DNA of 64,000 nt from Escherichia coli. GTDB lineage: Bacteria; Pseudomonadota; Gammaproteobacteria; Enterobacterales; Enterobacteriaceae. Where the stretch lies: assembly GCF_030013205.1 (NCBI RefSeq), contig NZ_CP122648.1; one strand, written 5' to 3'. Position 1 is the first letter of the stretch; the number at the start of each line of letters is the position of its first letter. Both the position numbers and the translations under genes were made by a program. Shown piece by piece: positions 1,728-2,865 of this stretch. Below the pieces are notes generated by a model that ran no database searches, was not told the DNA's origin, and saw only the letters and a program-made list of their open reading frames with translations.

Positions 1728-2865
1728 GAGAATAGTCCTCCTGAATGTGAAAGTAAGAAACAGCTGAGAAAGAGAAACTGAAGTGATATGAAGGTGATTG
1801 TGACGGTGACGGGTTAAAGCAGACCGTGTTCCGCAAAGGAGAAAACCTGGCTGCCACCGATTATCAGATGGTCCGGTACCAGAATGCCAGTCTGGTGCAG
1901 TATGCTGACAGTATCACGTTAATTGCAGCATAAAGTGATGAGAGGCTAATGGAAGTTAAAACCAAAGCATTTCCGTCGTTGTTTATCCCGGGAGACGCCG
2001 GAAAAAGTGATTTCCCACACACGTTATAAACTTCCCCCTGCGAAGCTGAAAGCCTTCAGCTCTGCGGTAGACACCGGCTGGCAGAACTGACAATGAACAA
2101 ACTTTACGATCGCGTTCCGGCTTCTGTCTGGAAATATGTCACCTGAACGTTTGGTAATCACAGCGGAGTTGCACCAGGTGTTATCTGCTCTGTGCGATTC
2201 TTTTTGTCGCAAAGCTGTTGTCGGGAACTAGGATAATACCGGGAACGTTAAGCGGTATAGCGACAACAAAGAATTCGAAATCAAAAGGGAATGGTGTCCG
2301 GAGGTGTGGGTGATCATGGGCTGATTTTCGGGTATTAACGGCCTGTATCTGCTGAGGTTTTCTCGTATTTACCGGGGATCCGGTGCGTTACTGTCTGGCA
2401 CAGCAAACGCAGAGGCGGCGGGGCGTTCTGCCCCGTTGATTCCGGATAATCCCTCCCCTGTAACCTACTGCAACAGTACAAATACACTGACGCCTGAAAC
2501 GACAGCCAGAATCAGCACAGGCAGTAACGTCAGTAGAAAGAGCAGACGATCGGTATTTCGGTAATAGCCTGAGGAAGCTGTTGACGCGCAACTCGGGCAG
2601 CATTCCGTATTATGAGTAATTGCGTTACCACAGTCCCTGCACTTCTTTTTGCGTATCACGATCGCTCCCTCTCCACGCCTTATCCGTAACCTGTTTTTTA
2701 CATTAAAAAAACAACGCTGAAAATTCAACCGTCAGTCCGGAGACGACCGTTCGGGTTATCACAGAGTGCCTGAGACATTGCCCGGTTGGAGATGACTTCA
2801 GGGACTCTGCACATTTTTTACAGCGTGGTTATTCCGTATGAACGAAACCATACGGAGATTTAACC

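Follow-up and report, generated by a model that had tools for sequence, protein, structure and literature searches.

A coding-poor kilobase of an Escherichia coli tRNA-Phe island: radC stub, broken hha paralogue, live small gene and conserved leader hairpin

Positions 1728–2865 of the stretch of Escherichia coli DNA analyzed here (64,000 nucleotides of contig NZ_CP122648.1, referred to below as the window; a window coordinate equals the L001 coordinate minus 2273) lie between the DUF987 gene yeeT (1506–1727, −) and a gene of the YagK/Gp2 family (2866–3435, +), exactly where a first reading from the letters alone (the sequence-only reading) had placed a segment poor in open reading frames (ORFs). 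This kilobase is very probably a mosaic that resulted from decay and rearrangement of the pheV (tRNA-Phe) island, and neither one hidden gene nor an RNA gene. It is composed of a radC stub, a broken hha paralogue, a single live gene of 65 codons, together with the control region of the gene that follows. Gene-derived sequence can be recognized in 463 of the 1138 nt (67 + 198 + 198), and the description as coding-poor hence holds.

With the exception of a conserved hairpin in the leader of the YagK/Gp2-family gene, this content was already known from the RefSeq annotation. The hairpin, which is located next to a Rep-like protein with HUH fold, is the sole part that deserves follow-up. Two items go beyond the annotation, a conserved hairpin predicted to mask the ribosome-binding site in front of a Rep-fold protein, along with the zinc-ribbon-like and membrane-helix features of a 65-aa protein encoded divergently from it. 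For genome scanning, the case illustrates that a seemingly empty kilobase of an island can be fully explicable by a deletion scar, a decayed gene and a small gene shorter than the customary ORF cutoff.

The deletion junction and the decayed genes

Among 5426 complete E. coli genomes, the 1138 nt recur at 100% identity over their full length in seven porcine chromosomes, namely those of K_EC180 and six Belgian enterotoxigenic E. coli (ETEC) isolates. In a further 586 genomes, the match begins only at query position 148.

The part adjacent to yeeT (1728–1813, −) is the native radC-yeeT intergenic spacer including the yeeT Shine-Dalgarno sequence (AGGAGG, the reverse complement of 1737–1742), with 100% identity to loci in which an intact radC precedes DUF987/yeeT. 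It adjoins a 3' remnant of radC (JAB/RadC; 1814–1880, −), which was recognized by translation, Pfam, NCBIfam and alignment and which consists of the final 67 of 477 nt, i.e. the last 21 codons and the stop. The minus strand of 1814–1879 translates as VPDHLIIGGSQVFSFAEHGLL followed by the stop. A radC-like gene had indeed been expected at this place, and the translated search for RadC fragments that had been proposed along with it recovered this remnant with both Pfam (E 5e-4) and NCBIfam (E 2.4e-4), in each case at the C-terminal end of the profile. Its C-terminal 29 residues correspond to positions 93–121 of the 121 positions of Pfam RadC (PF04002), which establishes homology to the family, with a score that stays below the gathering threshold owing to the short length. 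A complete JAB domain is not encoded, as the deleted part includes the metal-binding AHNHPSGE motif that is present in the intact protein of 158 aa. RefSeq lists the remnant as a 72-nt "hypothetical protein, missing N-terminus" (1814–1885, −), and the label given by the annotation pipeline PGAP reads "incomplete; missing N-terminus".

Up to base 1880, the window is 100% identical to locus L014, which contains the intact radC gene (158 aa) upstream of the same yeeT allele. Loci that carry the hha module without an adjacent radC become identical to the window from base 1875 onward. In the three-way alignment, the two identities thus overlap in a 6-bp microhomology, GGTACC (1875–1880), which is common to radC and to a site 74 bp upstream of hha. 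This junction is found in only 7 of the 5426 genomes. The porcine strain UMNF18 harbors the same hha pseudogene allele (99.9% identity over 1875–2865) in an undeleted island, in which the gene order is Gp2, small gene, hha', AlpA-like helix-turn-helix protein, a hypothetical gene, YfjI, GTPase and Ag43, followed by a 2.5-kb hypothetical gene (YeeR-like by position), IrmA, DUF905, DUF932, an antirestriction gene, radC and DUF987. Both copies of GGTACC are retained in UMNF18 at a distance of 14,218 bp (L015 5783 and 20001). The two-sided identity that meets at GGTACC, taken together with the undeleted order in UMNF18, points to a microhomology-mediated internal deletion in the lineage of the window, the size of which can be estimated at about 14 kb (about 14.2 kb by this comparison). 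In the sibling strain ETEC4068, the AlpA side is still present and a different deletion has removed the other side.

Mechanistically, illegitimate recombination between the GGTACC in radC and the GGTACC 74 bp upstream of hha would have eliminated some 14 kb, comprising the genes for the AlpA-like regulator, YfjI, the GTPase, Ag43, the YeeR-like protein, IrmA, DUF905, DUF932 and the antirestriction protein as well as the 5' 410 nt of radC, and would have left the 67-nt radC stub abutting the hha module head-on. In functional terms, the deletion cost this porcine lineage the AlpA-like regulator, Ag43, IrmA and its antirestriction gene, and it left the CbtA/CbeA toxin-antitoxin pair and the Gp2-like module in place.

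Beyond the junction, a residual upstream region of the hha paralogue (1881–1948, +) was delimited by alignment with strain H22 and by the annotation of relatives. In undeleted islands, about 700 bp separate hha from the AlpA-like gene. This stretch is gene-free (L002 3354–4074, L003 8365–9096, L012 1081–1265), and just 74 bp of it are kept in the window; a frameshifted hypothetical ORF is annotated there in one relative.

The hha paralogue itself is a pseudogene (1949–2146, +; ATG at 1949, TGA at 2144–2146) that can be assigned to the hha2/hha3 type, a typing based on published descriptions rather than on alignment to EC042_4516/4796. Its intact counterpart, a 70-aa allele from H22, matches Pfam HHA (PF05321) with E 2.3e-27 (95.4 bits against a threshold of 25) and NCBIfam Hha (PRK10945) with 108.2 bits against a cutoff of 90, and thus clearly belongs to the Hha family; over the entire module, H22 and the window share 91% nucleotide identity. 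Relative to this allele, the window gene has lost 14 bp after codon 6 (between 1967 and 1968) and a single base pair further on (between 2071 and 2072). The frame that starts at ATG 1949 consequently ends after 26 codons instead of running through some 70. In RefSeq, the gene appears as frameshifted, incomplete Hha/YmoA (1971–2146, +), in line with the PGAP label "frameshifted; incomplete".

The two lesions differ in their distribution. In the 11-copy alignment, the 14-bp deletion is common to L006, L009, L010 and L011, whereas the 1-bp deletion occurs in the window only and is specific to 22 genomes with at least 99% identity. It also destroys the remaining 49-codon frame. We infer that hha was already dead before the large deletion took place: the widespread 14-bp deletion would have removed the N-terminal frame and the lineage-specific 1-bp deletion the rest. 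As a side observation, the 14-bp-deleted allele is also present in Salmonella and is annotated by PGAP and other callers as an N-terminally truncated Hha of 49 aa with a GTG start (L006 1624–1773, L010/L011 1622–1771, L016 3585–3734).

The sequence-only reading had suggested a decayed gene remnant as one of two explanations for the segment. This was correct in kind, but the main decayed gene is the hha paralogue on the opposite strand, an accessory gene of xenogeneic silencing, with radC contributing merely 67 nt.

The live small gene

According to the sequence-only reading, the segment contained no convincing ORF of at least 60 aa. Three ORFs of this length are in fact present, with 62 aa (2024–2212, −), 71 aa (2388–2603, −) and 87 aa (2465–2728, −), only one of which corresponds to a real gene. 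The 87-aa ORF contains a 65-aa gene annotated in RefSeq as hypothetical protein WP_032240437.1 (2465–2662, −). This live gene had been overlooked, even though the judgment that the segment is coding-poor was sound. The 62-aa ORF, which is antisense to hha, and the 71-aa ORF, which lies in an alternative frame, were rejected since they are not kept across copies.

In all 11 of the diverged copies, which share 67% to 99% nucleotide identity, the reading frame of the small gene is uninterrupted, with lengths of 64–66 aa and indels that remain in frame, and it is the sole ORF of the hha-to-Gp2 interval that is retained in all copies. Its dN/dS ratio (non-synonymous to synonymous substitution rates) ranges from 0.22 to 0.87. 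In the window, the start codon is ATC, as compared with ATG in most copies; the next codon is a GTG (2657–2659) that is well spaced from a GGAGAGGGAG Shine-Dalgarno sequence. Homologues of the protein were detected solely in E. coli, Shigella, Salmonella and Klebsiella (58 clusters), and in Salmonella the gene occupies the same divergent position beside the Gp2 gene. As the only live gene of the segment, it would be transcribed divergently from the YagK/Gp2-family gene.

The encoded protein combines a zinc-ribbon-like N-terminus (CxxC...CC(P)xC) with a predicted C-terminal hydrophobic helix. The N-terminus is conserved as MVIRKKKCRDCGNAITHNTxCCP...YYRNTDR, in which C8, C11, C21 and C22 are invariant or nearly so and C25 is variable, and the C-terminal approximately 26 residues are hydrophobic throughout despite sequence turnover. 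In Pfam, NCBIfam, PHROGs and PADLOC, no curated family was matched at cutoff; only zinc-ribbon matches below threshold were obtained, with zf-ChsH2 (16.3 bits) and DUF2116 (15.1 bits) as the best Pfam hits. The AlphaFold 2 model contains a helix at residues 26–64 with confidence values (pLDDT) of 82–92 for residues 41–65, while the N-terminus is predicted at low confidence (about 50). The product may be a small membrane protein that is anchored by its C-terminal helix.

As a result of the deletion, the yeeT-cbeA-cbtA genes (1058–1727) and the small gene now share a strand, and no terminator was called in the interval that separates them. Transcription from the small-gene promoter could conceivably extend into the toxin-antitoxin module.

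The control region and the leader hairpins

The small gene and the YagK/Gp2-family gene are separated by a divergent control region of 203 nt (2663–2865), which was examined by alignment and promoter scan. Its mean pairwise identity (90.8%) is on a par with that of the Gp2 coding sequence (91.3%) and exceeds that of the small ORF (79.9%); these approximately 200 bp are under constraint. The most prominent element is a hairpin directly at the start of the Gp2-family gene, termed hairpin 2 here (2824–2868, +), that was delineated by RNA folding. Its 7-bp core (CCGTATG/CATACGG) had been noticed in the sequence-only reading. It is real and lies at 2834–2840/2849–2855, two bases away from where it had been put, but it is not located 5' of the ribosome-binding site, as had been stated; it overlaps the Shine-Dalgarno sequence GGAG (2854–2857).

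A bare 7-bp hairpin is close to a chance finding, with about 0.6 expected (1138 positions × 8 loop sizes / 4^7). In contrast, the extended structure of 17 pairs is not due to chance: folded as RNA, 2821–2868 form a 17-pair stem with a 3-nt bulge and an energy of −20 kcal/mol (z −6.1), and none of 200 shuffled sequences was as stable. In this fold, both the GGAG and the AUG (2866–2868) of the Gp2-family gene are paired. The core arms are invariant in the 11 E. coli copies, and the sole indel, of 5 nt, falls into the loop.

A genome-wide scan for Gp2 orthologues with 60–68% amino acid identity extended the comparison to Kosakonia, Hafnia, Rosenbergiella, Tatumella, Siccibacter, Superficieibacter, Tenebrionibacter and Entomohabitans. 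In the leaders from these eight other genera, a T-run is followed by a hairpin and then by GGAG 9–10 nt before the ATG. The hairpins end in ...CCGG or ...CUGG immediately before AG, which means that the last two bases of the 3' arm are in every case the GG of the Shine-Dalgarno sequence. The stems differ in sequence and still pair (CCGGU/ACCGG, CCAGU/ACUGG and, with a G·U pair, CUGGU/ACCGG), the inner helices differ as well, and the z-scores range from −1.6 to −3.1. Within the close subfamily (two E. coli variants, L019–L023, L025 and L027), the pairing involves at least the GG of GGAG in each of the nine leaders. A stable stem that sequesters the Shine-Dalgarno sequence is thus kept among orthologues. 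In 8 of 11 leaders, a better fold is obtained for the sense strand than for the antisense strand. In a 50%-identical paralogue (L014a), the GGAG is also paired, in a different fold with z −1.0, and the leaders of K-12 yfjJ and yagK contain neither an equivalent hairpin nor the small gene.

A further constant feature is the motif RTGAA (ATGAAC, GTGAAC, GTGAAA or GTGAAG) at the 5' stem-loop junction, which is found in 10 of 10 leaders despite their differing stems (window 2837–2842; L019–L027; L014 28004–28064). The ATG or GTG within this motif was considered as the true start codon and rejected: it lies 30 nt upstream of the annotated start and in frame with it in most other genera, and it is out of frame in the two E. 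coli variants (28 and 23 nt). Likewise, a sigma-70 promoter inside the hairpin (TTTACA and TATGAA) was dismissed, as its spacer measures 14 nt in all genera.

The most fitting interpretation of hairpin 2 is that it belongs to the leader of the YagK-like mRNA and does not represent an independent RNA. By pairing both the Shine-Dalgarno sequence and the start codon, it would most likely hold translation of the Gp2-family protein low, and we regard the chances as even that the hairpin limits translation initiation of this gene. Several findings weigh against this interpretation or against other parts of the picture drawn so far. MAFFT places the 5' arm of the E. coli leaders in another block of columns than the one used by the other genera, so that the arms lack positional homology, and the structure therefore has to be described as re-invented instead of as classical column-by-column covariation. 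When Shine-Dalgarno accessibility was compared with that of shuffled upstream sequence, no leader fell below 3% of the shuffles and several were near 50%; for no individual sequence was the difference significant. The promoter, the 5' end of the mRNA and repression are predictions only. For the small gene, dN/dS reaches its upper value of 0.87 in close pairs, and the second cysteine pair is not invariant, with C25 being absent in L006 and P0003. Finally, UMNF18 is not the exact ancestor of the window lineage, as its radC/yeeT alleles differ and it carries an extra gene; because it is not a direct ancestor, the size of the deletion is only an estimate.

Upstream of hairpin 2, a second structure might be taken as the center of a different regulatory arrangement. 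Transcription from a sigma-70-like site found by the promoter scan (TTTACA-16-GAAAAT; 2697–2724, +) would stop at a hairpin with a subsequent T-run (about 2731–2820) to yield an approximately 90-nt small RNA or attenuated transcript, and read-through would generate the Gp2 mRNA. This hairpin 1 (2762–2819, +), identified as inverted repeat I5 and by folding, has arms of 12 bp (2762–2773/2798–2809) that are 92% complementary, followed by 4 nt (CACA) and a run of six T (2814–2819). It folds with −22.8 kcal/mol (z −3.75), the putative leader as a whole (2731–2880) reaches z −4.0, and the T-run, which does not vary among the E. coli copies and recurs in other genera, lies within a region as conserved as coding DNA. 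Together, hairpin and T-run look like a terminator or attenuator. The terminator scan, however, made no call, given the 4 nt between stem and U-run and the long apical region, and the other genera retain the T-run without a recognizable preceding hairpin. In addition, there is no Rfam match, and the three promoters counted in the region are within chance (1.6 ± 1.1). A small RNA or attenuator of this kind hence appears unlikely.

The nature of the downstream protein raises another alternative. The YagK/YfjJ gene (2866–3435, +), annotated in RefSeq as "inovirus Gp2 family", encodes 189 aa with a Rep/HUH-like fold and displays the features of an HUH (Rep) endonuclease, i.e. the HUH motif, the catalytic Tyr and the Rep fold. 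This Rep-fold protein is present in roughly two thirds of the complete genomes of E. coli. Searches by sequence against the PDB gave no matches for the family, and no functional study of YfjJ/YagK/DUF3296 was found in the literature. In ETEC1748, one of the seven junction genomes, the Gp2-family gene is frameshifted (L004 13139–13707), and the module is still decaying in this lineage.

In rolling-circle plasmids and filamentous phages, origins are located just upstream of rep genes, and HUH enzymes act on DNA hairpins. By analogy, hairpin 2 could be a DNA element that serves the adjacent HUH/Rep-like protein as recognition or nick (origin-like) site. Such a role would be consistent with a near-threshold match of the protein to Pfam REP_ORF2-G2P, with the retention of RTGAA at the 5' stem-loop junction of otherwise variable stems, and with the conserved distance from a TTTAC(A/C/G) motif. 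Yet, in every genus the GG of GGAG forms the exact end of the 3' arm, which fits a role at the level of RNA and the ribosome-binding site and not an origin. Moreover, the G·U pairs favor the sense strand, K-12 YfjJ/YagK-type members have no such hairpin, and the literature gives no nicking activity for the Gp2/YagK family. Because the hairpin is invariably coupled to the Shine-Dalgarno sequence, the reading as an mRNA leader structure is favored, and a DNA element is judged quite improbable. If it were nevertheless true, the tRNA-Phe islands that are so common in Enterobacteriaceae would contain a module for replication or mobilization of the rolling-circle type, with an origin-like site beside a rep-like gene.

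The spacer, the island and related systems

Between the convergent hha' and small gene, a spacer of 2147–2464 remains, which was analyzed by alignment and folding. As an alternative to gene decay, the sequence-only reading had proposed a non-coding RNA for the segment, and the spacer was considered as a possible site of such an independent RNA. A block of approximately 60 nt (about 2237–2296) is in fact well conserved in 10 of 11 copies. A plus-strand ORF over this block, of 45–57 aa in relatives, was rejected as it is not kept and its substitutions are non-synonymous; since it is the only open frame, the block is not coding. Nevertheless, the spacer tolerates many indels, including a deletion of approximately 26 bp near 2212 in the window relative to most relatives as well as larger events, and it is mostly absent from the O157:H7 copy. 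RNAalifold predicted 37 pairs for 2147–2345, of which none is compensatory (covariation term +0.25, consensus energy −11.7), the fold z-scores are −0.8 and −1.8, and neither a promoter nor a terminator was called in the spacer. A terminator of hha was rejected as well, as the sequence just downstream of hha has the z-score of −0.8 and was uncalled by the terminator scan. The Rfam scan that had been recommended (release 15) gave zero matches at E ≤ 1 for window positions 1–6000, and at gathering thresholds the tRNA-Phe was the only match in the whole window. The proposal of a non-coding RNA is thus unsupported, and an independent RNA in the spacer is very unlikely. As for a simple radC pseudogene that covers the whole region, which the sequence-only reading had named as the finding that would refute it, the probability is negligible: the radC 3' end is present, but identity to intact radC stops at 1880 after only 67 nt, as revealed by the three-way junction alignment that refutes this view, and the DNA from 1875 onward is the hha/small-gene/Gp2 module, which occurs in 3512 of 5426 E. 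coli genomes without adjacent radC.

In K_EC180, the region belongs to an island that is integrated at tRNA-Phe (pheV; the tRNA gene is located at window positions 10249–10324) and adjoins the kps capsule locus. The transposase gene of ISEc20, an insertion sequence of the IS110 family (3998–5194, −), directly follows a DUF7828 zinc-ribbon gene (3601–3984). The ISEc20 position is occupied by a second zinc-ribbon gene in H22 and similar relatives, so the insertion sequence probably replaced or displaced that gene, and a partial IS110 fragment is found at the far island end in K_EC180. On the other side of the segment, a single 140-aa ORF (172–594, −) extends across two features of the RefSeq annotation, a partial DUF5983 pseudogene (397–594) and a DUF957 gene (172–369). 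It may represent an in-frame fusion downstream of cbtA.

With regard to known systems, the predicted stem of hairpin 2 resembles the leader hairpins that occlude Shine-Dalgarno sequences in translational operators and RNA thermometers, as it likewise pairs GGAG and AUG. As in these leaders, an anti-Shine-Dalgarno element (YUCC, CUCC or CC) is found at the 5' base of the stem and is kept across genera. Hairpin 2 differs in that it matches no Rfam thermometer or leader family, and typical RNA thermometers are much less stable than its −20 kcal/mol. Hairpin 2 also shares features with the origins of HUH Rep proteins, such as the RepB/pMV158 double-strand origin (dso), the origin of gpII in Ff phages and the hairpins of TnpA-REP, as it is a variable-stem hairpin with a conserved junction or loop motif that is positioned directly upstream of a gene for a Rep/HUH-fold protein. 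In contrast to these, hairpin 2 is tied to a ribosome-binding site and has no recognizable iterons or nick-site consensus.

The decayed paralogue finds its counterpart in the island-borne hha2/hha3 genes, which are linked to the flu-yeeR-irmA cluster in enteroaggregative E. coli (EAEC) 042 and other pathotypes (Prieto et al. 2016, PMC4864382; Bernabeu et al. 2019, PMC6480617). Both are chromosomal, horizontally acquired genes of the Hha family, and the undeleted UMNF18 island fits the description with its Ag43 (flu), YeeR-like (by position) and irmA genes. Unlike hha2/hha3 of EAEC 042, the window gene is pseudogenized and the flu-yeeR-irmA cluster is deleted.

At the level of the island, a study on Pseudomonas deals with a widespread class of islands in which inovirus Gp2-like, RadC, AlpA and integrase proteins are listed as the likely core functions (bioRxiv 10.1101/2024.08.29.610337). 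These intY-alpA genomic islands (RadC, YqaJ and Gp2-like core) have an integrase, an AlpA-like regulator, a Gp2-like protein and RadC in common with the island discussed here. The hosts are Pseudomonas in one case and Enterobacteriaceae in the other, and the likeness is one of gene set alone that does not imply transfer by jumbo phages in the present case. The K-12 genes yfjJ and yagK are distant (37–39% amino acid identity to the window protein) and are not accompanied by an hha gene, the small gene or the leader hairpin. On the other side of the junction, the K-12 modules of CP4-44 and CP4-57 (yeeS/yfjY, yeeT/ypjJ and cbeA-cbtA/yfjZ-ypjF) exhibit the same order of a radC-like gene, DUF987, antitoxin and CbtA toxin. 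Unlike in these modules, radC is cut down to 67 nt in the window and the entire module is fused head-on to the hha/Gp2 module.

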